Sequence record: PQ724394.1
Length of the DNA: 64,000 nt
Origin: a phage
Direction: 5' to 3' (one strand)
Position 1 is the stretch's first letter; each line of letters opens with the position of its first letter. This document shows positions 2,577 through 31,236 of the stretch, in pieces. The position numbers and the translations under genes are program-made. Under the pieces are notes generated by a model, which was given only the letters and a program-made list of their open reading frames with translations, searched no databases and was not told where the DNA came from.

Positions 2577-2782
2577 AGGAAACCTCGTTTAAATTCAACT
2601 TTATCAATATCATCGGTCTCGTGACGGATTTCGGCGTTAAATTCGATAGAACCGTCTTCATGCATCATAAATGAATGGACAATAACTTCGGTATACCAAG
2701 GAGTATAGAAGTACTTTTTCAATACGTGATTAGCGATAATTTCATCCAAAGTTTTATTTGGTTTAATCCAACGATTTAACAT
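2573..2782 (-). CDS. hypothetical protein (69 aa)
   Basis: GAGGAG RBS upstream of ATG at 2782; early promoter cassette immediately upstream. Confidence 0.45.
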   Translation of the reverse strand: MLNRWIKPNKTLDEIIANHVLKKYFYTPWYTEVIVHSFMMHEDGSIEFNAEIRHETDDIDKVEFKRGFL

Positions 2783-2808
2783 AGTGTTCTCCTCTATAAG
2801 ATACGTCT

Positions 2809-2838
2809 ATCTTAACATGGTCTACTCGTAAAGTAAAC
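2809..2838 (-). promoter_or_regulatory. early promoter (GTTTAC-N18-TAAGAT)
   Basis: -35 GTTTAC at 2833-2838 with -10-like hexamer; upstream of gene 2573-2782. Confidence 0.5.
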
Positions 2839-2848
2839 TACTAAAACG

Positions 2849-2870
2849 AAAAAAGGAACCCGAAGGTTCC
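2849..2870 (-). terminator. intrinsic terminator
   Basis: GGAACC-TTCG-GGTTCC hairpin followed by T-run on the minus strand, after soc. Confidence 0.65.
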
Positions 2871-2876
2871 TTATAA

Positions 2877-3110
2877 TTAAACAATATCAGTTGGCGTAAA
2901 CATCGCCTCGTTCTTGGCCTTCCAGTCGGCAGCATCAGTCACTACCGTAGAATATGCTGCCTTTTCAGATGGGAAAGTCTGATAATGCGCATTAGCAATA
3001 CGATGTGCATCGGAATAGATTTCAAACGGAACTGAAACCTCAGTACCTTTAACTTCTTTACCTTCACCAGCTGCATGCGTAAAGGTTTTGATATTAACGA
3101 AACCACCCAT
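2877..3110 (-). CDS. soc: small outer capsid protein Soc
   Basis: 77 aa; recognisably similar to T4 Soc (VNIKTF...HYQTFPSEKAAYSTV); TATAAATA late promoter upstream; hairpin terminator downstream. Confidence 0.8.
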   Translation of the reverse strand: MGGFVNIKTFTHAAGEGKEVKGTEVSVPFEIYSDAHRIANAHYQTFPSEKAAYSTVVTDAADWKAKNEAMFTPTDIV

Positions 3111-3141
3111 AATTAACTCCTTTGTTGTTTAATTACAGGTG

Positions 3142-3149
3142 TATTTATA
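3142..3149 (-). promoter_or_regulatory. late promoter (TATAAATA) for soc
   Basis: Exact TATAAATA about 32 nt upstream of the soc ATG. Confidence 0.6.
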
Positions 3150-3291
3150 ACTTACAATTTGGCTGCTTTCCAAAGTTGTTCAATAATCTCTTGGTCTATT
3201 TCTTTAGTTATTTCATTACGTAATAAGGCAGTAAGGGCTTTCGCCCTTTTCTTATTCAACTTTTTGAGTTGTCGTTTATTTAAACGAGGCA

Positions 3292-3813
3292 TTAATAACC
3301 TCGGTCTTGACGAGCAAAGTTCTCGGCATTTTTCAGATAATACAGTTTAAAGATTTCTTCAGCAGTCAGACCAAGACCTTGGAACATATTCAGAACAAAG
3401 TGAAGAATATCAATCATCTCGAATTTAATTTCGAGCTGGTCTTCAGGAGACAACTCGTCAATACGACGGTTACGGAATTCACCGTGTTGAGCTTTCCAAG
3501 GCTTCCACACACTAGAGGCAGCTTTTTCGCCATTACTCATACCGCCAAGAGAAGTCAGCAGTTCACGGAATTCATCATCAATATAATCTTTCTGGTTGCG
3601 AAGCCAGTCGACAACTTGACCAGCCGTAGCTAGTTCATCGGGATTGGTGTTGAATTCTGATTTTTCAGTGGCCAGACGAACCTGTAATGATTTCTGCATA
3701 TCAAGCATAACTTGCAGAGGGTCTTTATCTTCGTGAATCAGAGCATTAAAATAAGCTTCTTCAGCTTTATCAACACCAGCAATAAGTTGAGAACATTCAT
3801 TAAAATGAGCCAT
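3292..3813 (-). CDS. 56: dCTP pyrophosphatase (dCTPase, MazG-like)
   Basis: 173 aa, same size and position as T4 gp56, adjacent to primase gene 61. Confidence 0.85.
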   Translation of the reverse strand: MAHFNECSQLIAGVDKAEEAYFNALIHEDKDPLQVMLDMQKSLQVRLATEKSEFNTNPDELATAGQVVDWLRNQKDYIDDEFRELLTSLGGMSNGEKAASSVWKPWKAQHGEFRNRRIDELSPEDQLEIKFEMIDILHFVLNMFQGLGLTAEEIFKLYYLKNAENFARQDRGY

Positions 3814-3904
3814 TATATTTTTCCTTTTTCAATTCATTAATAAGTTAGATAATTATAAACTGCTAGATTAAAGCGAATAAATATTAATTTAACAGGAGGA
3901 TAAC

Positions 3905-4105
3905 ATGGGCAGTATTTTTTACCAAATCTGGAAATTGGCAGAAAAGAAAGACAAGAAAATGATGTTAGGTTTTCTTGCGCTAGACGTATTCCTTTGGAAT
4001 CTTCTAGTAGTCCCTGTAGCCGCTAGCCAAGGGGTAGTTTTACCAGCGGTTACAATGGAACACGTGTTAAGCATAATTGGATTCTTTAGCGGAATCCCTG
4101 CTTAA
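3905..4105 (+). CDS. hypothetical small hydrophobic protein (66 aa), opposite strand
   Basis: Strong AGGAGG RBS 7 nt before ATG at 3905; hydrophobic segment; sits in the 56-61 intergenic gap. Confidence 0.35.
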   Translation: MGSIFYQIWKLAEKKDKKMMLGFLALDVFLWNLLVVPVAASQGVVLPAVTMEHVLSIIGFFSGIPA

Positions 4106-5130
4106 ATCTTGGAATATTTAGAAAGTCTCATTTTTGCCATTAGACCTTGGGCTATATTAGCTTTCATATATGCCAATACATCATTTATATCAGCTTTATC
4201 TTTCATAACCATATCATTTATATCTTTAGAAGGCCATGGAGCCTTGTCCCAGAATAGAACCCTTTCACCGGCATCAACTAGGCGTTGCATACGTTTAATT
4301 GTGTCAGGATGACGGGGTTCATTGTCCATTACCCAGGCACGAGTTTCTTTACATGGAACCATAGCCAAGTCCAACGACCCACCAGTAATTGCTATTGCGT
4401 TAGGTACGAATAATGAATCAATAGGACCTTCCATTACCCACACCAATTGACGTTCGTCAACTGTATCCATTCCATATATTTTTGTAGCTTGGTCATGAGC
4501 TTTTATTGTAATATATTTTTGTGGAGCATCTTTACGCAAGGCTCGACCCTGGAAACTTTCTATTTGTTTATCCTTATTGAAAATAGGAATAACCAAACGA
4601 GGCTCAGGCATTTCTTTAGAATAGGTCCCTGGATTCACTGAGTTAACCAATGCAGGCCATTCTTTAGTAAACCATAACCGATTCCATTTATTTTCAGGAA
4701 TGCACCGCAGAGTTACATACTTAATAATAGGATGGTCTTTCGGCATTCTATCTAATCGTTCACAGAAATTAAGCTTTTCGATTACGGGCATCTTAGCTTT
4801 AATTTTTTCAGATATCTCCACCTTAGGTGCAGCTTGTCTCCCGAACGATTGCTCTTTATGTTTCTCAAGAATATATTCGCGATATAAATCAGGCTCATAT
4901 TCGTATAGGTACTTCTTAATTCCTGCCGAATAATCACAGTTAAAACAGTGTAGCATTACAGAGCCGTCATTGGCCGGATAGGCCCAGAATCGAGCTTTGT
5001 TTTCATCTTTTTGGGAGTCACCACATACACGGCAACGACAATTTAATTTAAAATCACTACCAGTTACTTGTCTGAATTTAGGTTGGTAATTCAAGGCACG
5101 TACAGCAAATTCTCTATCGACATATGACAT
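4102..5130 (-). CDS. 61: DNA primase
   Basis: 342 aa, same length as T4 gp61; N-terminal Cys4 zinc ribbon (CRCRVC...CFNC) followed by a Toprim-like region. Confidence 0.95.
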   Translation of the reverse strand: MSYVDREFAVRALNYQPKFRQVTGSDFKLNCRCRVCGDSQKDENKARFWAYPANDGSVMLHCFNCDYSAGIKKYLYEYEPDLYREYILEKHKEQSFGRQAAPKVEISEKIKAKMPVIEKLNFCERLDRMPKDHPIIKYVTLRCIPENKWNRLWFTKEWPALVNSVNPGTYSKEMPEPRLVIPIFNKDKQIESFQGRALRKDAPQKYITIKAHDQATKIYGMDTVDERQLVWVMEGPIDSLFVPNAIAITGGSLDLAMVPCKETRAWVMDNEPRHPDTIKRMQRLVDAGERVLFWDKAPWPSKDINDMVMKDKADINDVLAYMKANIAQGLMAKMRLSKYSKI

Positions 5131-5539: not shown

Positions 5540-5980
5540 TTAACCTCGGTTCATAAAGGCATTAAAAATCTGGTCGTCGATTGAATAAACAGGAGCTTCC
5601 AGAATTTTCAACAGACTGTTTTTGATATACTTGCTAGGGATATCCATATTAACAGCATCGTTCAATTCATTGTCCGGGAGGATGTCTTTAAATTCAAACC
5701 CTTCAAACTCAACCTTGTCAGGAATACCATCAGCGAAAAAATAGACCAATTGGTGCATTGCATTACATGAAAATAATTTAGACCTCACCTCAATAAGTTC
5801 TTGCCAATGGTTTAATTCTCTGTTAAGAAGTTTATGGGCCATTGTAATTCTATCATCACTATCAACAAGAAAATAACCTAGGTACTGGTGGTCGTCGCTC
5901 CAAAACATCCTGTATGCTTGTGCATTTGGATTTTTACAACGAAGCTTTTTGATAACTAAATTTCTGTTAATCTTATTCAC
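5540..5980 (-). CDS. hypothetical protein (146 aa), 61.2-like position
   Basis: ORF in conserved position between 61 and 41. Confidence 0.45.
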   Translation of the reverse strand: MNKINRNLVIKKLRCKNPNAQAYRMFWSDDHQYLGYFLVDSDDRITMAHKLLNRELNHWQELIEVRSKLFSCNAMHQLVYFFADGIPDKVEFEGFEFKDILPDNELNDAVNMDIPSKYIKNSLLKILEAPVYSIDDQIFNAFMNRG

Positions 5981-7313: not shown

Positions 7314-8753
7314 TTAAAATTTGATAGATGCTGCTAAATCGTCTAAATCGCTTCTATTAACACGTGACTGGCGATTGACCTCTGCTTGGCGGTTCATTTC
7401 ACCTGTGGCCTCACGAACAGTGTTCACTGGGCCTGGGTTAGAATCGTCTTCAACTTCATACCAACGTTGGTTTCCTTTCTTAACACCAATCTTAAATTTG
7501 TTGTAGTAGCTCTTATCGCCATAACGAGATTTAAGCTGCTTAATCATCTGCATACCCATCTGAGCAAACTCTTCTGTCTCGACCACACCTAACATGAAGT
7601 CTGCAGTATGTGCAATACCAAAGGATTCAGCGATATCAGCCATATCGATTTCGGCCGCAACGTTCGCACCACGAGTAGTCTGGGCTGCTGTCCATAGCAA
7701 TAATTTCTTCTCTACTGCAAGACCACGTAGTTCTTCGGCAACCATCTTAATCAATCCGTAACTGTTTTCAGAGAAAACTTTCGTACGGGATGAAGCACAG
7801 ATAGCCAAGTAGTCGACGATAACGACCTGTGGGACAAAGTTTTGTTTGAGCTTGTATTCGTTTAATAATGCACGGAATGTATCGGCATTAGCACCACCAG
7901 TAGGATATTGTTTAATCTTTAAACGACCTAAAGTAGCAGTTGAACGCCACTTATCCATCTTAGCTTTATATTCAGGCCATGAGACGTGACCATCGTCAAT
8001 ATCATCCAGTGATACATCTAGAAGGTTGGCATCGATACGCTTAGCACATACTTCCTCTGCCATCTCCATGGAGATATAAAGAACATCATAACCGGATTGA
8101 AGGTAATCAGCAGCCAATGAACACAGTCCAAGAGACTTACCTACGTTTGTTCCTGCCAACAATACGTTTTCAGTACCAAACTCAGCGCCACCCTTGGTAA
8201 TCTTATTCAGAATATTAAGACGGAATGGAACCTTACGGGCTTTATCAGAATAACTTTTAAAACGTTCTTCATAGTCATCCATCCAGTCATGGCCTAATTC
8301 AGAATCGAAACAAATCGATAATGCATCTCGCATGATATCCGGAATGGCACCAATACCTGGGAGTTTTCTATTTTGTTGCTCAACCGGAAGGTCGGCATTA
8401 GTTTGAATTTCAATAATTTTTGAAGTGGCATTATACATCGCTGCCTTCTGAACATATTTCTCTGTCTCTTTAACCAACCATTCTTGGTCTTCAGGGCCTG
8501 CATTCAGAGAATTTAAAAGCTCTTTAGCTCCTTGATGTTCAACTTCTGAAAGGGTGCTGTTATCTAATGCAATACTCAAAGCATTTTTAGAAGGCACCGC
8601 ATTATATTCATTGACATGTTTTTTGATTTCTTTGAAAAGGGTCTTTGCCGGACCCTGGTCAAAATAAGAATCATTCATATAAGGCCAGACCTTAGTGAAA
8701 TAATCACTATTGCCTAGCAGTTGAGCCAAAATAGTTTCTACCACTTCCACCAC
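7314..8753 (-). CDS. 41: replicative DNA helicase (DnaB-like)
   Basis: 479 aa; Walker A GTNVGKS; N-terminus matches T4 gp41; hairpin terminator immediately downstream. Confidence 0.95.
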   Translation of the reverse strand: MVEVVETILAQLLGNSDYFTKVWPYMNDSYFDQGPAKTLFKEIKKHVNEYNAVPSKNALSIALDNSTLSEVEHQGAKELLNSLNAGPEDQEWLVKETEKYVQKAAMYNATSKIIEIQTNADLPVEQQNRKLPGIGAIPDIMRDALSICFDSELGHDWMDDYEERFKSYSDKARKVPFRLNILNKITKGGAEFGTENVLLAGTNVGKSLGLCSLAADYLQSGYDVLYISMEMAEEVCAKRIDANLLDVSLDDIDDGHVSWPEYKAKMDKWRSTATLGRLKIKQYPTGGANADTFRALLNEYKLKQNFVPQVVIVDYLAICASSRTKVFSENSYGLIKMVAEELRGLAVEKKLLLWTAAQTTRGANVAAEIDMADIAESFGIAHTADFMLGVVETEEFAQMGMQMIKQLKSRYGDKSYYNKFKIGVKKGNQRWYEVEDDSNPGPVNTVREATGEMNRQAEVNRQSRVNRSDLDDLAASIKF

Positions 8754-9067
8754 CTCTTAGATTTAATTTTATCCAGTTCTTCTTGTATTTGCATTGTAAC
8801 ACATTTTTCTACATGAAGCGCTAGCTCTTCTTTTCGGTCTTCGGAAGGCGTTCCGAAATCAACCGACACTTTTCCATCTTTCTCAATAACAATATTCATC
8901 ACATAAACGATGTGAGCAGTGCCATCAGGCAATGTAAGCATAATTTCCTGCTTAACAGAACCCATTGACTTACGGATTATATCTAACGATTTCTCATAAT
9001 AACGAGGGTCGCTAGGACCCTCTTCAGTATCTTTAACAAAATTATCTAAATCAGATAAATCAGTCAT
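8738..9067 (-). CDS. 40: gp40-like head vertex assembly chaperone
   Basis: 109 aa ORF in conserved position between uvsX and 41. Confidence 0.5.
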   Translation of the reverse strand: MTDLSDLDNFVKDTEEGPSDPRYYEKSLDIIRKSMGSVKQEIMLTLPDGTAHIVYVMNIVIEKDGKVSVDFGTPSEDRKEELALHVEKCVTMQIQEELDKIKSKRWWKW

Positions 9068-25743: not shown

Positions 25744-25992
25744 TTAATCCTTGTAATTCAGTTTTATATAAAAATCTTCGTCGGTAACGTGATAGTTATA
25801 AGTTAATGTTCCTTTTTCAGCTTTAATTTCTACCGAATCAGGGTGTTTTGGGTCTATTACAATAGGAAGCTTGGCAATATCCTTAAGATACATTTTAAGA
25901 ACATAAGGAATTGCCGAATACTCTCCATCTACTTCTTCTAAAAGGCCTACCAGGTTAATCTTGAGTTCCATATAAAAAATCCAGCTCACCAA
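25744..25992 (-). CDS. hypothetical protein (82 aa)
   Basis: ORF between 47 and 55. Confidence 0.4.
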
Positions 25993-26512
25993 CTTTAGAT
26001 TCGGCGCTCTTATCAGACCCTGGCGCTTTAACTAAAGAGGTTTCGTACTGAGTCATTTTGTCGTAAATATCCTGGATAAAAGTTTCATCTGCGATACCTA
26101 CCATGTCGTCGTCATTAGCGTCATAAACGTTATGGACGAAGTAGCTGTATTTCTTTGCCATTTCTTTACGTTCTTTCTTGATACGCTGAACAAAGGCATT
26201 AAAACAAGCCATAGTGATATATGCATGTGGGTTGTCGTATTTTGTTTCGTCGAAGTTATGAAGACCTTTAATGGAAGCTTCGATTCCATCAGCAATCATT
26301 TCTTGCTTCCAAGATTGGGTATATCCGGAGAAGTTGAAACGCTTAGAAAGGCCTTCAGCAATGAGCATAATAGCCAAGCCGATAACGTCGTTCTGACGAA
26401 CTATTTTATTAGGGTCGGTATTTTCTCGGAGTTCCGTTTTCCACTGGGTAATGGCTTTCAGAAGCTCCTTATTATTTACATAGTTATTTTTAGTCAGTTT
26501 AATTTCGGTCAT
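25955..26512 (-). CDS. 55: late-transcription sigma factor
   Basis: 185 aa, same length as T4 gp55; conserved position. Confidence 0.85.
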
Positions 26513-26551
26513 TGTTACCTCAGATAACTCAAATCATAGGTCTATTATATC

Positions 26552-26579
26552 ATAGTATTTGGAGACCCGTTTAAAGCAT
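26552..26579 (-). promoter_or_regulatory. MotA-type middle promoter candidate upstream of gene 55
   Basis: ATGCTTTA box with TACTAT about 12 nt downstream. Confidence 0.4.
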
Positions 26580-26842
26580 CAGCGGAGTAAGCAATAAGCC
26601 TGAAATACGGTTTCAAGGATTTGTATGAACTCGGGATAAGAAATTGTATCAGTACATCCATGTTCGGACATATATCCGCAAAATTCTTTAAAAAGTTCCG
26701 GATAATCCCGATGGTTGTATTTGGAAATATGAGACTTCCATACTAAAGAAGTCTCACCACAAACAAACTCAACATCCATACAGTTATCTATTAAGAAAAA
26801 TCCGAGACCTTCATAAGCGAGGGTGGTGGATATGGGTTTCAT
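26579..26842 (-). CDS. hypothetical protein (87 aa)
   Basis: ORF. Confidence 0.4.
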   Translation of the reverse strand: MKPISTTLAYEGLGFFLIDNCMDVEFVCGETSLVWKSHISKYNHRDYPELFKEFCGYMSEHGCTDTISYPEFIQILETVFQAYCLLR

Positions 26843-27063
26843 TGTAGGAATCGAGCTCCTTCTAATGCATCATCAAGATTATCAAACTCATCGACGTAAT
26901 CAATACCGCCAACTTCATCTTTAGCGTATAGCCAGTACCGTTTAAATTCATATTCGATAATAAAGTGGTCACCTTCAATCTGGAGAGCCCCATCACCATT
27001 AAATTGAACTGCATAACCTGTAAAGCGGACATCATTCAGGAGTTCTTCTTTCATAGCAATCAT
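26839..27063 (-). CDS. hypothetical protein (74 aa)
   Basis: ORF coupled to the downstream gene. Confidence 0.4.
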   Translation of the reverse strand: MIAMKEELLNDVRFTGYAVQFNGDGALQIEGDHFIIEYEFKRYWLYAKDEVGGIDYVDEFDNLDDALEGARFLQ

Positions 27064-27100
27064 TCCAAGTTTTTATCGTAATTAGAGAGTTTTATTTTAA

Positions 27101-27430
27101 TCATTTCGCAGCCTTAACAATTTTCAGGTCAACGAATTTTTTCTTACGTTGATTCTTCATACGACGGATGGTTTTGTCTGTAATTTCACCCGGCTGCCAA
27201 GCTTTAGATTCGACACCAAAGGCGGCAACATCAAACTCGTCGAGAATATATTGAACCAGGATTTCACGAATACCGTTCTTACCAATTTTTTGGTCTTTAG
27301 AGTGCATAATTGGTAACAGTTCAGCAACCCATTGGTCAAGAACCTGAGGAGTTACAAAGCCGGTTTTCATCAGTTCGTTAACTTTATCGAAAGCGAAAGA
27401 GTTCAGTACGTTTTTAATAGCTTGTGACAT
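27101..27430 (-). CDS. hypothetical protein (109 aa)
   Basis: ORF; early promoter upstream; shares a 26-nt initiation region with gene 34022-34867. Confidence 0.45.
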   Translation of the reverse strand: MSQAIKNVLNSFAFDKVNELMKTGFVTPQVLDQWVAELLPIMHSKDQKIGKNGIREILVQYILDEFDVAAFGVESKAWQPGEITDKTIRRMKNQRKKKFVDLKIVKAAK

Positions 27431-27469
27431 AATAATTTCCTCAGTTTAAAATTTATAATCCGTGGGGCC

Positions 27470-27499
27470 ATTATACTCTGGTCCCAAGAGTTTGTAAAC
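27470..27499 (-). promoter_or_regulatory. early promoter (GTTTAC-N18-TATAAT)
   Basis: Upstream of 27101-27430. Confidence 0.55.
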
Positions 27500-27699
27500 T
27501 ATTTTTGTGCTAATGCACCTTTCCAGCCTTCATACATCATCGCGGCTGATATCAATATTGCTCCTGAGCATTTTGAATATTTGTTATTCCAAAACCAGTT
27601 TAGAAAAACTTCGTCATCAATACCTTGGGCTATCATGTTTTCAAAGAACTGACGACGGGCTTCAGCAATTCGTTGTGATAATTTAGATTCAGGATTCAT
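27499..27699 (-). CDS. hypothetical protein (66 aa)
   Basis: ORF. Confidence 0.35.
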   Translation of the reverse strand: MNPESKLSQRIAEARRQFFENMIAQGIDDEVFLNWFWNNKYSKCSGAILISAAMMYEGWKGALAQK

Positions 27700-27924
27700 T
27701 TAAATTTTCCAGTTACCGTTTTCATCAATAAATTCAATCCAGTCATTTACTGACCACTTAGTCGTATCGCCTTTTGGAGCAACATTTAAGGTGTATAATC
27801 CTTGTTTAAAAAGCATACGTTTGATATTCATATTTTCCTCAGCTGTAACGATAGCACTCGTTTGATTTACGTTTTGCAACTCGATGAGAAGTATTGTAAT
27901 CAGGTTCATCGTCATTGTAAACAT
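27700..27924 (-). CDS. hypothetical protein (74 aa)
   Basis: ORF. Confidence 0.35.
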   Translation of the reverse strand: MFTMTMNLITILLIELQNVNQTSAIVTAEENMNIKRMLFKQGLYTLNVAPKGDTTKWSVNDWIEFIDENGNWKI

Positions 27925-28132
27925 CTTTTTTCAGCTTTCTCACTTCTTTACGAAGTTGGCGATTCATTTCATTCTTAACTTCAGAATCAACGCCACGCAT
28001 ACGTTTCCACTTGTCAGAACGGAAGATATTTTCTTCAACTCGTTCCTGACTTACGCCGTCTGGTGCTTTACGACGTCCGGAATAATAAAAATCTTTTACA
28101 GACAATTCTTTACGACGGATAGTTTTACCCAT
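27839..28132 (-). CDS. hypothetical basic protein (97 aa)
   Basis: ORF overlapping its neighbour by 86 nt; start uncertain. Confidence 0.3.
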   Translation of the reverse strand: MGKTIRRKELSVKDFYYSGRRKAPDGVSQERVEENIFRSDKWKRMRGVDSEVKNEMNRQLRKEVRKLKKDVYNDDEPDYNTSHRVAKRKSNECYRYS

Positions 28133-28134
28133 AG

Positions 28135-28389
28135 TTACCTCAACAGTTTGTATCCAATAAGATTTTTAATGTACTGGATATCTTTGATATCCAAATCCAA
28201 CTTAAGGTCTTTCAGACGGTCGGCCAAGGTCAAAAAGGTTACATGCTTCCAATTCTTCACTGGGCAGCAATAAGTCTTAGGACCATTTGCAATTTCAATA
28301 TTCTTATCAGTGACGGTGAGAAAAATTAGGCGCTCATCATCCAGATTAAGGGTGACGACATTTTTCATTGAATGCAATTTCAGGCTCAT
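28135..28389 (-). CDS. hypothetical protein (84 aa)
   Basis: ORF. Confidence 0.4.
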   Translation of the reverse strand: MSLKLHSMKNVVTLNLDDERLIFLTVTDKNIEIANGPKTYCCPVKNWKHVTFLTLADRLKDLKLDLDIKDIQYIKNLIGYKLLR

Positions 28390-28562
28390 AATTTAATTTC
28401 CTTAGCTATCGAACAAAATACACCACGGTCACAAATCATTTTAATATTAAGGTCAATTATAGTATACCACACGTCCAGGCTAGATATTTCAGTTACTAGA
28501 ACAGCTTTGCCATTGATTGAATAATACTGGTTGACTTTAATTTCTTTATCTTGGATAGTCAT
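28386..28562 (-). CDS. hypothetical protein (58 aa)
   Basis: GAGGAG RBS and early promoter cassette upstream; translated by hand. Confidence 0.35.
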   Translation of the reverse strand: MTIQDKEIKVNQYYSINGKAVLVTEISSLDVWYTIIDLNIKMICDRGVFCSIAKEIKL

Positions 28563-28590
28563 AATGTTCTCCTCATGTGTTGATAGGATA

Positions 28591-28620
28591 GACTATAACA
28601 CGTGAGGAGAGGAAGTAAAC
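28591..28620 (-). promoter_or_regulatory. early promoter (GTTTAC-N17-TATAGT)
   Basis: Upstream of 28386-28562. Confidence 0.6.
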
Positions 28621-28621
28621 A

Positions 28622-28939
28622 CTAATCTTCAATTAAATCTCGGTCATAGCCAAGCTCAATCAAAAGGGATTTGAAGGCAGGAATATTTTCTATTTTCTTA
28701 TTATCAACAAAGATTACAGGATAGCGTATAGCTAAGCTCTTGAAGCCAGCACGTTTGGCCAATGATACTATAAGAGGCTTATCATATACTGCGCCTGACG
28801 GCGTCTGGTTAATCACAGGATAGAAAGTATATTGGATAGAAAGGGAATTTAGGAGCGATAGAACTGCAATGCACCCTGGACAGCGCATGACCGTCTCAGG
28901 GATACCGTAAATCTCAATTTTAGTTAACTTTTGGTCCAC
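28622..28939 (-). CDS. glutaredoxin/NrdH-like redoxin, probable GTG start
   Basis: Thioredoxin-fold pattern KIEIYG...CPGC; AAGGAG RBS 8 nt upstream of GTG at 28939; the longer ATG-initiated frame overlaps the neighbouring gene. Confidence 0.45.
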   Translation of the reverse strand: MDQKLTKIEIYGIPETVMRCPGCIAVLSLLNSLSIQYTFYPVINQTPSGAVYDKPLIVSLAKRAGFKSLAIRYPVIFVDNKKIENIPAFKSLLIELGYDRDLIED

Positions 28940-29216
28940 AGGAAATAACTCCTTGGTAGTCCCAAGTTTTGATAACTTCGTCTTCATTAGTTCCATACGG
29001 GATGTAAATCTGGATAAGGAACCCAGTATCATCAAAAGAGAAGTAGACAGTAGGTTTAATACCATGAATCTCTGAAAGAGCATAGATGTCCTTGAGGTCA
29101 TCTTCCTTATCTTTAAAGAATTCTGGGTTCAGGTCACAGTCATGGAAGTACCATTCTTGGCCAAACTTGTCCCAAGCGCCCCAATCAGTAGCTACATACT
29201 CTTCAAAACGTTTCAT
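28920..29216 (-). CDS. hypothetical protein (98 aa)
   Basis: ORF. Confidence 0.4.
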   Translation of the reverse strand: MKRFEEYVATDWGAWDKFGQEWYFHDCDLNPEFFKDKEDDLKDIYALSEIHGIKPTVYFSFDDTGFLIQIYIPYGTNEDEVIKTWDYQGVISCGPKVN

Positions 29217-29440
29217 TCTTTCACCTTCATCATTTTAGAAATAACACTATGAACAGACTGGATTCGTTTTTCGAACTCAGAATCTTCAAGACCCTTTTCA
29301 GTACTCAGCGCACCAATCATCACAAACAGCAATCCAAATGGGATAACCAGGATTAAAAGGCACACAATAAACAGGACAAATGTAATATTGGCCAGGATAT
29401 CAGAAGCAGCATTACGAAATTTATTCATACGATAGTCCAT
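29213..29440 (-). CDS. hypothetical membrane protein (75 aa)
   Basis: ORF with hydrophobic helix. Confidence 0.4.
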   Translation of the reverse strand: MDYRMNKFRNAASDILANITFVLFIVCLLILVIPFGLLFVMIGALSTEKGLEDSEFEKRIQSVHSVISKMMKVKE

Positions 29441-29534
29441 GTATTAGTTACAACAAATAACCATTGGGCAGGATACTCAACACCCATGCGCCGGATAATA
29501 TCATTCATAGATTCGGTTAAGGCATAAAAATTAA

Positions 29535-30008
29535 TCATTTAAGCGATTTCCTCAGTTGTTTTTTAAATGAATCGACCATTTGTTTCTTTGTGTCAGATTC
29601 ATTATAAGCCATTCCGTGTGAAAGCATTTCAGCAATCATTTCTTCCTTACCTAATCTACTGAACTCTTTGGTTTTATCAGGAACGAAATTAGGATGGATA
29701 TTGTTTTCAGTATAATCAGATTTCAGATAGACCAGCAAATTCTCTAACCATTCGAGGTAGTCAACATTTTGACCTTTAAGACCAGAACGGTTGAACTTAT
29801 GCTTCATTTGTCCTTCTGCAGCATTGCACAGGTTACATAGTAAACCACGAACCTTACCGGCTTTTGGCCCATTCAATTCATGGTCGTGGTCAAGGTGGTT
29901 ACTTTGAACATCAGGGTTTAATTCACGTTTACAAATCAAACACTTACCATGTTGTGCATCATAAAGTTTTTGTTTTTCTTCTTTGTATAGTTTGCCAGTC
30001 AACAACAT
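29535..30008 (-). CDS. 49: endonuclease VII (Holliday junction resolvase)
   Basis: 157 aa; about 90 percent identical to T4 endo VII as recalled (MLLTGKLYKEEKQK...CNLCNAAEGQMKHKF). Confidence 0.95.
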   Translation of the reverse strand: MLLTGKLYKEEKQKLYDAQHGKCLICKRELNPDVQSNHLDHDHELNGPKAGKVRGLLCNLCNAAEGQMKHKFNRSGLKGQNVDYLEWLENLLVYLKSDYTENNIHPNFVPDKTKEFSRLGKEEMIAEMLSHGMAYNESDTKKQMVDSFKKQLRKSLK

Positions 30009-30509
30009 AATAAACCCTTACCATTATTAGATAAGGGTATTTATTAAACGTTATAAAATGAGCGATGCAACCGTTTAAATTGACGAATCATCTTTTTGGT
30101 AGGACGGGTGTATAATCCTACACAAGTGGCCATAAACTGGTCAGTAGGACTTCCTTTGATAAGAAGTTTCCATACCTTGTCACCATTTAACTTTTCAGTA
30201 TAGACTAATACAGTTTTCATCAGAACGCCTTATCAGCAAAGCGGAGTTGAGCTTCAAGCCAATGGATATAATCGGCTGCGGCTTTAATTAAATCAGACTC
30301 TAGGTCAGGTAAAGAACCCGAATCCGATAACTCGTAAAGCGAATGTTCAATCAGACGGCCTTTATGACGGCCAACTTCAATTTTGGTACTCATATCCAAA
30401 CTCCATATCGATTAAATCATTGTTTGAAGGTTCATTATACTCTATTTCGGAATCGTTGTAAACTGGTTCCTCTGGCTCGGTAGTTTCCCACCGAGCGACA
30501 TACCATGGC

Positions 30510-30818
30510 TTAACGGTCACGCCACCAACTACTTACTTCAAAATCAGGCTCGCCGTTTTCCCAATACCAAGGGCCAACCGGGTGCCAATCACCATGCTCA
30601 TCTTCTTCAAATTCTTCGGATTCGAGCCCGACGTATTGCCATTGGACTTCATAAGCAATGCCGCCGATTACAACGGTGTTCTCGCCGTATGGGTGAGCTA
30701 CAACAAAGTCAATACCTTCTGCTTTAGCCAACCAAACCATATATTCATATAGTTTATATTCTAGGTCGTCTTCGGTGCCATCACCTAGAAAAATGGTTTG
30801 TTCATTTAATTCAATCAT
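30510..30818 (-). CDS. hypothetical acidic protein (102 aa)
   Basis: ORF. Confidence 0.4.
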   Translation of the reverse strand: MIELNEQTIFLGDGTEDDLEYKLYEYMVWLAKAEGIDFVVAHPYGENTVVIGGIAYEVQWQYVGLESEEFEEDEHGDWHPVGPWYWENGEPDFEVSSWWRDR

Positions 30819-30972
30819 TTAAAGTTCCAGAATGAAGCCCCAACTAGAAATAAAGGCCAACAAATCATAGACGTCAACCACCAACAAAAATCACCGGAAT
30901 CATCCAATTTAGCTAGGGTCTTAGCATAACCAATGCCGATGATAAGATACAAAACACCCAACAATAATTCAA

Positions 30973-31236
30973 TCATTTGAAATATGCTCGCAGTTGGTCA
31001 AAGCCACCAATAGAAGTTCCATCAGGAGCAAATACCTGAGGCATAGTCAAACCTACTTGAGATTCACGTCCAAGAGCAGCCAGGAGTTCAGCAATCTTCT
31101 CATCATCAAATACACCTTTTTCCGGCATCACGTTAATGAATTCGTAAGGTTGTTTCTTAACATCAAGCAGACGTTTAGCATTATCACAGAAAACACAACG
31201 GTGAATATTTGAATCGTAACCATAAACTTTAAACAT
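30973..31236 (-). CDS. nrdC: thioredoxin/glutaredoxin NrdC
   Basis: 87 aa; MFKVYGYDSNIH.CV.CDNAKRLL nearly identical to T4 NrdC. Confidence 0.9.
   Translation of the reverse strand: MFKVYGYDSNIHRCVFCDNAKRLLDVKKQPYEFINVMPEKGVFDDEKIAELLAALGRESQVGLTMPQVFAPDGTSIGGFDQLRAYFK

Follow-up and report, generated by a model that had tools for sequence, protein, structure and literature searches.

A JS98-type T4-like coliphage lacking nrdD-nrdG between genes 55 and 49, with a probable deletion history and a GTG-started nrdH

By sequence comparison, the window (the whole 64-kb stretch of phage DNA that was analysed) derives from a T4-like coliphage of the JS98 type (Dhakavirus). Taken together, it is very probable that this phage carries the RB69/T4-type string of small genes between genes 55 and 49 without the nrdD-nrdG (class III) cassette and that the nrdH gene of the string starts at a GTG codon. 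The cassette was most likely lost by deletion. A nucleotide search with a 4.2-kb query returned 54 records with at least 80% query coverage, and the identity to the annotated JS98 genome (NC_010105) was 98.1% over 4.2 kb. Gene order and content were the same in JS98 and other Dhakavirus phages (JS10, IME08, and VR5), in which nrdH-ORF073-55.8 adjoins gene 49. JS98 diverges from the window by a few percent, and its RefSeq record has an 88-aa nrdH and no annotation of a 37-aa ORF found here.

Gene content of the 55-49 interval

The interval was found to contain 12 small genes, all encoded on the minus strand and none longer than 109 aa, based on the ORF listing and the JS98 annotation. Eleven are annotated in JS98 and the other is the conserved 37-aa ORF (Table 1). 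Genes 55, 55.1-55.6, nrdH, 55.8, and 49 follow one another in this order on one strand, as seen by comparing the window with T4 and RB69. Ten of the 12 genes (all except 55.4 and the 37-aa ORF) were scanned, and each matched a PHROGs family over most or all of its length. These are therefore real genes, which rules out that they are chance ORFs. The Pfam and PHROGs alignments of gene 55.1 both begin at residue 4, and this gene may start at its second ATG (27054). No late promoters (TATAAATA) were detected within the interval, and the number of sigma-70-like sites (10, with 12.4 expected) was not above chance.

Table 1 Genes of the 55-49 interval, its boundaries, and nrdC in the window.
Feature	Position	Strand	Basis or remark
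Gene 55, late sigma factor, left boundary	25955..26512	-	185-aa ORF; gp55 at matching JS98 position
RB69 ORF072c-like small gene (DUF7200)	26579..26842	-	Pfam PF23830, E 6e-33; phrog_1822 end to end; JS98 annotation
Gene 55.1 (DUF5495)	26839..27063	-	Pfam PF17599, phrog_1662; JS98 annotates 216 nt
Gene 55.2 (DUF7570), 109 aa, largest of the interval	27101..27430	-	ORF listing, JS98 annotation, Pfam, PHROGs
Gene 55.3 (DUF5490)	27499..27699	-	ORF listing, JS98 annotation, Pfam, PHROGs
Gene 55.4, 43 aa, internal ATG of a 74-aa ORF	27700..27831	-	Mapped JS98 annotation, ORF translation
Gene 55.5 (DUF5499)	27839..28132	-	ORF listing, JS98 annotation, Pfam, PHROGs
RB69 ORF079c-like small gene (DUF7290)	28135..28389	-	ORF listing, JS98 annotation, Pfam, PHROGs
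Gene 55.6	28386..28562	-	phrog_2283 end to end; JS98 annotation
Phage 'nrdH', 105-aa CPGC glutaredoxin-fold protein	28622..28939	-	GTG start 28939; Shine-Dalgarno AAGGAG 28954-28949
RB69 ORF082c-like small gene	28920..29216	-	phrog_2749 end to end; 3' end overlaps nrdH start by 20 nt
Gene 55.8, small predicted membrane protein	29213..29440	-	phrog_1930 alignment begins at residue 5
Conserved 37-aa ORF	29425..29538	-	ORF listing, junction alignments; unannotated in JS98; sequence MINFYALTESMNDIIRR
Gene 49, endonuclease VII, right boundary	29535..30008	-	157-aa ORF very close to T4 gp49; JS98 annotation
nrdC	30973-31236		True nrdC, separate from 'nrdH'

RB69 (Mosigvirus) and T4 (Tequatrovirus) have the same string of small genes and a GTG-started nrdH but differ from the window in having nrdG and nrdD between 55.8 and 49, as do VR20 and JD18. 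RB69 shares homologues of ORF072c, ORF079c, and ORF082c with the window and also has ORF075c, and T4 further has mobC and the I-TevII intron. The T4 order is 55.8-nrdG-mobC-nrdD (with the intron and I-TevII)-49. The initial annotation, which had counted about a dozen ORFs under 110 aa and placed nrdH, nrdG, and nrdD here on the T4 map, was thus right on both points. The T4 NrdD exons, NrdG, MobC, and I-TevII gave no match to the 64-kb window by tblastn (best E about 2), and neither this search nor the comparison with VR20 revealed nrdG or nrdD between 55.8 and 49. VR5, VR7, and Entb_45 have the same layout without nrdDG as the window. This layout is already known, having been annotated in JS98 since 2007 and listed in a 2013 survey table (PMC3653736). 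T4 gene 49.2, which RefSeq names as a ribonucleotide reductase, has no Pfam family and is absent from Dhakavirus too, with too few genomes for a link.

The junction and the direction of change

In the alignment of the window with VR20, homology extends over 28500-29429 and resumes at 29538, with 108 nt between these points here and 2398 nt in VR20. The 37-aa ORF occupies this exact site, its ATG overlaps the stop codon of gene 49 (AAATGA), and nrdD-nrdG would sit upstream of it. A small ORF follows nrdG in Tequatrovirus, Mosigvirus, Gaprivervirus (VR20), and Jiaodavirus. It is annotated as hypothetical in VR7, VR5, Entb_45, and JD18, and is unannotated in T4 and RB69 as it is in JS98. A degraded nrdD/nrdG remnant at the junction was considered and rejected, since what the 108-nt segment matches in T4, VR20, and RB69 is the small ORF after nrdG and not the coding sequence of nrdD or nrdG. 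The start of gene 55.8 conserved across phages is probably ATG 29428, judging from homologues of 216 nt in VR20, VR7, and VR5, and overlaps the stop of the 37-aa ORF (ATGA).

The junction sequences show microhomology together with the small ORF. The missing block extends from the start codon of nrdD exactly to the start codon of the post-nrdG small ORF. With these boundaries, the gene 49 stop overlaps the ATG of the small ORF (AAATGA|TTAA), and the chain of start/stop overlaps from 49 through the 37-aa ORF, 55.8, and the ORF082c-like gene to nrdH is preserved. The deletion most likely occurred by a crossover between the two short A-ATGA junction repeats, after which the allele would have passed between related phages by homologous recombination. 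VR7 (vB_EcoM_VR7, Gaprivervirus) has the same junction without nrdDG, with no difference over about 42 nt spanning the gene 49 stop and small-ORF start. We give roughly even chances to a wider proposal, namely that the nrdD-nrdG block is a cleanly bounded exchangeable cassette with A-ATGA start/stop-overlap ends, that recombination in genes 49 and 55.8 has exchanged alleles with and without nrdDG among Tevenvirinae genera, and that the 37-aa ORF encodes a real conserved micro-protein whose translation is coupled to that of the preceding gene, whichever this is.

The direction of change is most likely loss, as suggested by the distribution of the cassette rather than by a dated tree. The opposite direction, in which this lineage started out without nrdDG and the other phages acquired it by insertion, is unlikely, though several observations fit it. 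The presence of nrdDG varies within one genus, being absent from VR7 and present in VR20. The gene 49 sequences of these two phages are 98% identical over their initial 300 nt, but VR20 differs from its close relative VR7 in having a T4-like 3' end of the gene. The nrdD gene of VR20 is 97-99% identical to that of T4 while the flanks are far more diverged, which shows that the cassette can also be gained by recombination. At the 55-49 locus, nrdDG is likewise missing from T4-like phages of Acinetobacter (record comparison; PMC4177764). However, Tequatrovirus, Mosigvirus, Gaprivervirus (VR20), and Jiaodavirus all have nrdG-nrdD at one and the same position, nrdG lies near nrdH in Krischvirus (Phi1), and a single loss that then spread, or a small number of losses, is a simpler account than a large number of identical insertions.

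Start codon and family of the nrdH redoxin

The assignment of the nrdH start to GTG 28939 is well supported by sequence conservation. The codon (28939-28937) is in frame and is separated by a 9-nt spacer from AAGGAG (28954-28949), which verified the start and ribosome-binding site proposed at first reading. The GTG and the AAGG of the Shine-Dalgarno sequence are invariant in five aligned genomes (the window, JS98, VR20, T4, and Entb_45), and the GTG is also found in RB69. With the GTG-started protein as tblastn query, each of the 60 sampled rows showed homology beginning at residues 1-10, and query coverage reached 80% or more in 1334 of 1342 records. The KIEIYGIP strand preceding CPGC is conserved. 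T4 nrdH is annotated with a GTG start, and T4, VR5, and VR7 annotate the long form (105 aa in VR5 and VR7).

It is very unlikely that the redoxin starts instead at ATG 28888, before CPGC, as in the 88-aa JS98 annotation, or at an upstream ATG (28987). ATG is a commoner start codon than GTG, and the RefSeq records of JS98, VR20, and RB69 use shorter forms. However, phages outside Dhakavirus have Gly, Ser, Trp, or His in place of the Met at 28888, and a start there would remove the conserved first beta-strand of the fold. The 105-aa annotations of VR5 and VR7 also stand against a shorter start, and the invariance of the GTG and Shine-Dalgarno core against either alternative. The T4 sequence has an in-frame TAA 12 nt before the GTG and no ATG in the space between them, which excludes any start of the conserved protein further upstream in that phage. 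The GTG assignment would correct the nrdH start in several RefSeq records.

The redoxin of the window is 60% identical to T4 NrdH from residue 2 and matches the phrog_22 thioredoxin domain (E 9e-14). A direct phmmer search against PDB gave no match for the redoxin; only the family profile reached T4 glutaredoxin (1AAZ, E 1.8e-6, 84 of 87 residues). This profile places the KIEIYGIP strand on residues 3-8 of 1AAZ, so that KIEIYGIP...CPGC, with invariant Cys20 and Cys23, is aligned to KVYGYD...CVYC, and at the sequence level the invariant Pro74 aligns to the Pro of MPQVF that precedes beta3. The register of beta1, CxxC, and the proline before beta3 is therefore shared with T4 glutaredoxin (NrdC, 'T4 thioredoxin'; PDB 1AAZ, 1ABA, 1DE1/2), from which the redoxin differs in having CPGC rather than CVYC and about 15 extra C-terminal residues (LGYDRDLIED). 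The T4 record carries the note 'has glutaredoxin activity'.

Bacterial NrdH-redoxin, the electron donor of class Ib NrdEF, is likewise a small CxxC glutaredoxin-fold redoxin and has the same name. Its motif is C-V/M-Q-C, whereas that of the window redoxin is CPGC. The NCBIfam NrdH model (TIGR02194) did not match the window redoxin, the Pfam Glutaredoxin model (PF00462) scored 18.6 bits, below its gathering cut-off of 22.9, and no nrdE/nrdF partner is annotated in JS98. On these alignments, the phage 'nrdH' is paralogous to T4 glutaredoxin (NrdC) and distinct from bacterial NrdH, and it is independent of nrdDG.

Reductase genes of JS98-type phages

We searched three complete Dhakavirus genomes (JS98, Esco_phi_B-01, and CLBP2) with NrdD and NrdG of T4, VR20, JD18, and Phi1 and found no match at E<=0.01, while the VR20 positive control was recovered. 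NrdA, NrdB, and NrdH were all found in the same three genomes, as expected. Neither component of a class III reductase (the ~600-aa glycyl-radical NrdD and its ~155-aa radical-SAM activase NrdG) was thus detected in the window or in these three genomes, which supports that nrdD and nrdG are missing rather than relocated. The initial annotation had left both options standing, and of these we retain the first. The window makes up about 38% of a genome of about 170 kb, the absence from the remaining ~106 kb resting on relatives, and T4-type genomes are mosaic, with gene cassettes that do move. Nevertheless, we see barely any probability that nrdD and nrdG lie beyond the window, since one of the three genomes without them, as judged with four divergent query sets, is 98% identical to the window, and the published table agrees: JS98, JS10, IME08, and VR7 have only nrdB-nrdA, class I only (Dwivedi et al. 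2013, PMC3653736, Table S1). An assembly or laboratory-deletion artefact of a single sequence is scarcely credible, with the identical junction in 48 independent phage records and the 37-aa ORF detected in 60.

With nrdD-nrdG missing, the phage would keep class Ia nrdA/nrdB elsewhere in its genome, as seen in the three complete relatives, together with the glutaredoxin-fold nrdC and 'nrdH'. Established T4 biology suggests that its anaerobic dNTP supply would have to come from host enzymes and nucleotides salvaged from host DNA. Beyond annotation hygiene the finding has little consequence, though it points out one small unannotated conserved ORF. It confirms that the reductase encoded by JS98-type gut coliphages is solely the oxygen-dependent one, a mild curiosity given their isolation from stool and a point of relevance to their therapeutic use in the anaerobic gut.

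Absence of nrdD and nrdG

The 4.2-kb query across the interval between genes 55 and 49 matched Escherichia phage JS98 (NC_010105; Straboviridae, Tevenvirinae, Dhakavirus) over its full length at 98.1% identity. Other JS98-like phages were 95-98.5% identical, and 54 phage records covered at least 80% of the query in one place. Window positions equal JS98 positions minus ~11,966, so the window corresponds to about 12-76 kb of JS98.

The initial annotation had placed nrdH, nrdG and nrdD between genes 55 and 49 of T4, and had proposed that nrdD and nrdG, the class III anaerobic ribonucleotide reductase genes, were missing or relocated in this phage. The T4 record agreed with this map, the order being 55, 55.1-55.6, nrdH, 55.8, nrdG, mobC, nrdD (with the I-TevII intron), 49. 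RB69 follows the T4 order but has neither mobC nor the intron; three extra 'RB69 ORF' genes are common to it and the window. In VR20 (Gaprivervirus) and JD18 (Jiaodavirus), nrdD and nrdG likewise lie between 49 and 55.8.

T4 NrdD exon 1 and exon 2, NrdG, MobC and I-TevII had no match in the 64-kb window using tblastn (best E about 2), and T4 NrdH matched at 28625-28930 with 60% identity. We then reconstructed the complete genomes of three Dhakavirus phages (JS98, Esco_phi_B-01 and CLBP2) from the phage collection and queried them with NrdD and NrdG from T4, VR20, JD18 and Phi1. No match was found at E<=0.01 in any of the three, while NrdA, NrdB and NrdH were detected in all of them and the VR20 locus was a working positive control. 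Dwivedi et al. 2013 (PMC3653736) list JS98, JS10, IME08 and VR7 as 'nrdB-nrdA, class I' only, and in their tree legends these phages are in the class Ia tree and absent from the nrdD tree. Because the searches of the window and the three genomes were negative and this table agrees, nrdD and nrdG are missing; the three complete relatives speak against relocation, the other option proposed. Their absence in JS98-type phages is already on record.

Gene content of the interval and its junction with gene 49

As initially described, only small ORFs lie between genes 55 and 49. The JS98 annotation places 11 genes there (RB69 ORF072c-like, 55.1, 55.2, 55.3, 55.4, 55.5, ORF079c-like, 55.6, nrdH, ORF082c-like and 55.8), and an additional 37-aa ORF brings the total to 12, with a largest product of 109 aa. 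We scanned 10 of the proteins against Pfam and PHROG, leaving out gene 55.4 and the 37-aa ORF. All 10 matched a PHROG family, nine over essentially the whole length, and six matched a Pfam DUF. These matches rule out chance ORFs and identify the scanned ORFs as genuine conserved phage genes.

Features of the region between genes 55 and 49 (window coordinates)
Feature	Position	Strand	Remark
gene 55	25955-26512	minus	ORF listing and JS98 annotation
55.1	26839-27063	minus	second in-frame ATG at 27054
sigma-70-like site	27470-27498	minus	55.3/55.2 intergenic gap
hairpin	28563-28621	minus	intergenic region downstream of nrdH that holds the hairpin
nrdH (redoxin)	28622-28939	minus	CPGC protein
nrdH GTG	28939-28937	minus	in frame
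AAGGAG	28954-28949	minus	nine bases upstream of GTG
hairpin	28952-28966	minus	inside 3' end of gene upstream of nrdH
55.8	29213-29440	minus	second in-frame ATG at 29428
37-aa ORF	29425-29538	minus	
small-ORF stop/55.8 ATG overlap	29425-29428		
gene 49 stop/small-ORF ATG overlap	29535-29538		
gene 49	29535-30008	minus	ORF listing and JS98 annotation

The second ATGs of 55.1 and 55.8 are likely the true starts, with profile alignments beginning at residues 4 and 5, respectively; JS98 is annotated with the longer 55.8. A strong sigma-70-like match (TTTACA-17-TATAAT, 11/12) is a candidate early promoter, and the overall count of such sites across the interval showed no excess over chance. The 12-bp near-perfect hairpin downstream of nrdH (CTCCTCACGTGT ... 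ACACATGAGGAG) is overlapped by another such site (TTTACT-16-TATAGT) and holds the GAGGAG ribosome-binding site of 55.6 in its 3' arm, which may allow T4-style translational occlusion.

The window is homologous to VR20 up to 29429 and again from 29538, with 108 nt replacing 2398 nt of VR20. This segment is the 37-aa ORF (MINFYALTESMNDIIRRMGVEYPAQWLFVVTNTWTIV), which is unannotated in the RefSeq records of JS98, T4 and RB69. Homologues were found directly after nrdG in VR20, RB69 and JD18, after nrdG but frameshifted to 27 aa in T4, and directly after gene 49 in VR7, VR5 and Entb_45, which lack nrdDG. The sequence has diverged heavily, yet the lengths (32, 37, 39, 41 and 42 aa) differ by whole codons only, an argument for a coding ORF.

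In nrdDG-bearing phages the cassette ends are AAAATGA|CAATTG (49 stop/nrdD start) and AACATGA|TTAAAT (nrdG end/small-ORF start), and the window junction reads AAATGA|TTAAT. This junction is the product expected of a crossover within the A-ATGA microhomology and preserves the chain of start/stop overlaps, in which the small-ORF ATG overlaps the gene 49 stop and its own stop overlaps the conserved second ATG of 55.8, the PHROG alignment start. The chain continues through 55.8/ORF082c-like and a 20-nt overlap into nrdH.

Start codon and family of the redoxin

The GTG start and AAGGAG site proposed for nrdH were well supported. In a 5'-region alignment of the window, JS98, VR20, T4 and Entb_45, the GTG and the AAGG Shine-Dalgarno core were invariant in all five genomes and neighbouring bases variable. 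T4 nrdH is annotated from GTG (VKQNKIEVYGIPDEVGRCPGC) and RB69 has the same codon; the aligned T4 row has an in-frame stop codon (TAA) 12 nt before the GTG, making an earlier start impossible in T4. The 105-aa GTG form, also annotated in VR5 and VR7, matched 1342 phage records using tblastn, with at least 80% coverage in 1334. All 60 sampled alignments began at residues 1-10, upstream of Met18, the start annotated in JS98. Outside Dhakavirus that position is Gly, Ser, Trp or His, and the IE-YGI strand ahead of it is invariant. The 88-aa JS98 form loses beta-strand 1, and this annotation is almost certainly wrong.

The 3' arm of a short hairpin (CTTGG-GACTA-CCAAG) overlaps the first bases of the AAGGAG site and might couple nrdH translation to upstream ribosomes. 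The RB69 nrdH frame (5590-5862 of its locus) ends …FLNDKKQRYCRV before the stop, unlike the LGYDxDxIED tail kept in other phages, which suggests a frameshift or truncation.

A profile built from nine phage NrdH sequences matched T4 glutaredoxin (NrdC; 1AAZ/1ABA) at E about 2e-6 over 84 of 87 residues, aligning EIYGIP with KVYGYD, CPGC with CVYC, and the invariant Pro74 with the Pro of MPQVF. The redoxin did not match the bacterial NrdH model and scored under the Pfam Glutaredoxin cut-off, which makes 'NrdH' a historical name; the protein is a divergent paralogue of the phage glutaredoxin. Formate, not a redoxin, is the reductant of class III reductases, and retention of nrdH without nrdDG is therefore no paradox.

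Exchange of the cassette and probable consequences for the phage

Gene 55.8 adjoined gene 49 in 48 of the 1174 phage records matching the junction query, and 60 records had the small ORF in the window's form. Beyond Dhakavirus, the adjacency was observed in VR7 (Gaprivervirus) and Entb_45 (Kanagawavirus). The same locus also lacks nrdDG in an Acinetobacter T4-like phage, in agreement with PMC4177764.

VR7 and VR20, of one genus, show 97% identity to each other in nrdH and 93% in 55.8. Within gene 49 their identity falls from 98% over the first 300 nt to only 85% over the final 174 nt, a stretch in which VR20 is closer to T4 (79%) than VR7 is (69%). Compared with T4, VR20 (2683-4500 of its locus) is 97-99% identical in NrdD, 80% in NrdG and 66-78% in flanking genes; VR7 lacks the cassette. 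This suggests that nrdD moved recently between genera by recombination, perhaps through homing-endonuclease-driven co-conversion. Cassette presence or absence is therefore a recombining polymorphism. Since four genera carry nrdG-nrdD at one and the same position, we infer loss in the JS98 lineage; this direction is not proven, because gain by recombination clearly also happens.

T4 gene 49.2 (8507-8827 of the T4 locus), labelled 'ribonucleotide reductase' in RefSeq, had no Pfam match, and this label does not appear to be justified. The gene is absent from both the window (49.1/49.3 region, ~30400-30900) and the three Dhakavirus genomes and present in nrdDG-bearing T4 and VR20, a co-occurrence from very few genomes.

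The observation is confirmed and its interpretation supported; lack of nrdDG in this interval is standard for a well-known phage genus and has been published. The analysis adds only a little to this: a corrected start of nrdH for several RefSeq records, a conserved micro-ORF at the junction, and cleanly bounded cassette ends together with evidence for inter-genus exchange. This phage type encodes nrdA/nrdB, nrdC and nrdH but lacks reductases of class II and class III. dNTP synthesis by phage enzymes would need oxygen; in its absence the phage would have to draw on NrdDG already present in the host and on nucleotides freed from the host's DNA.
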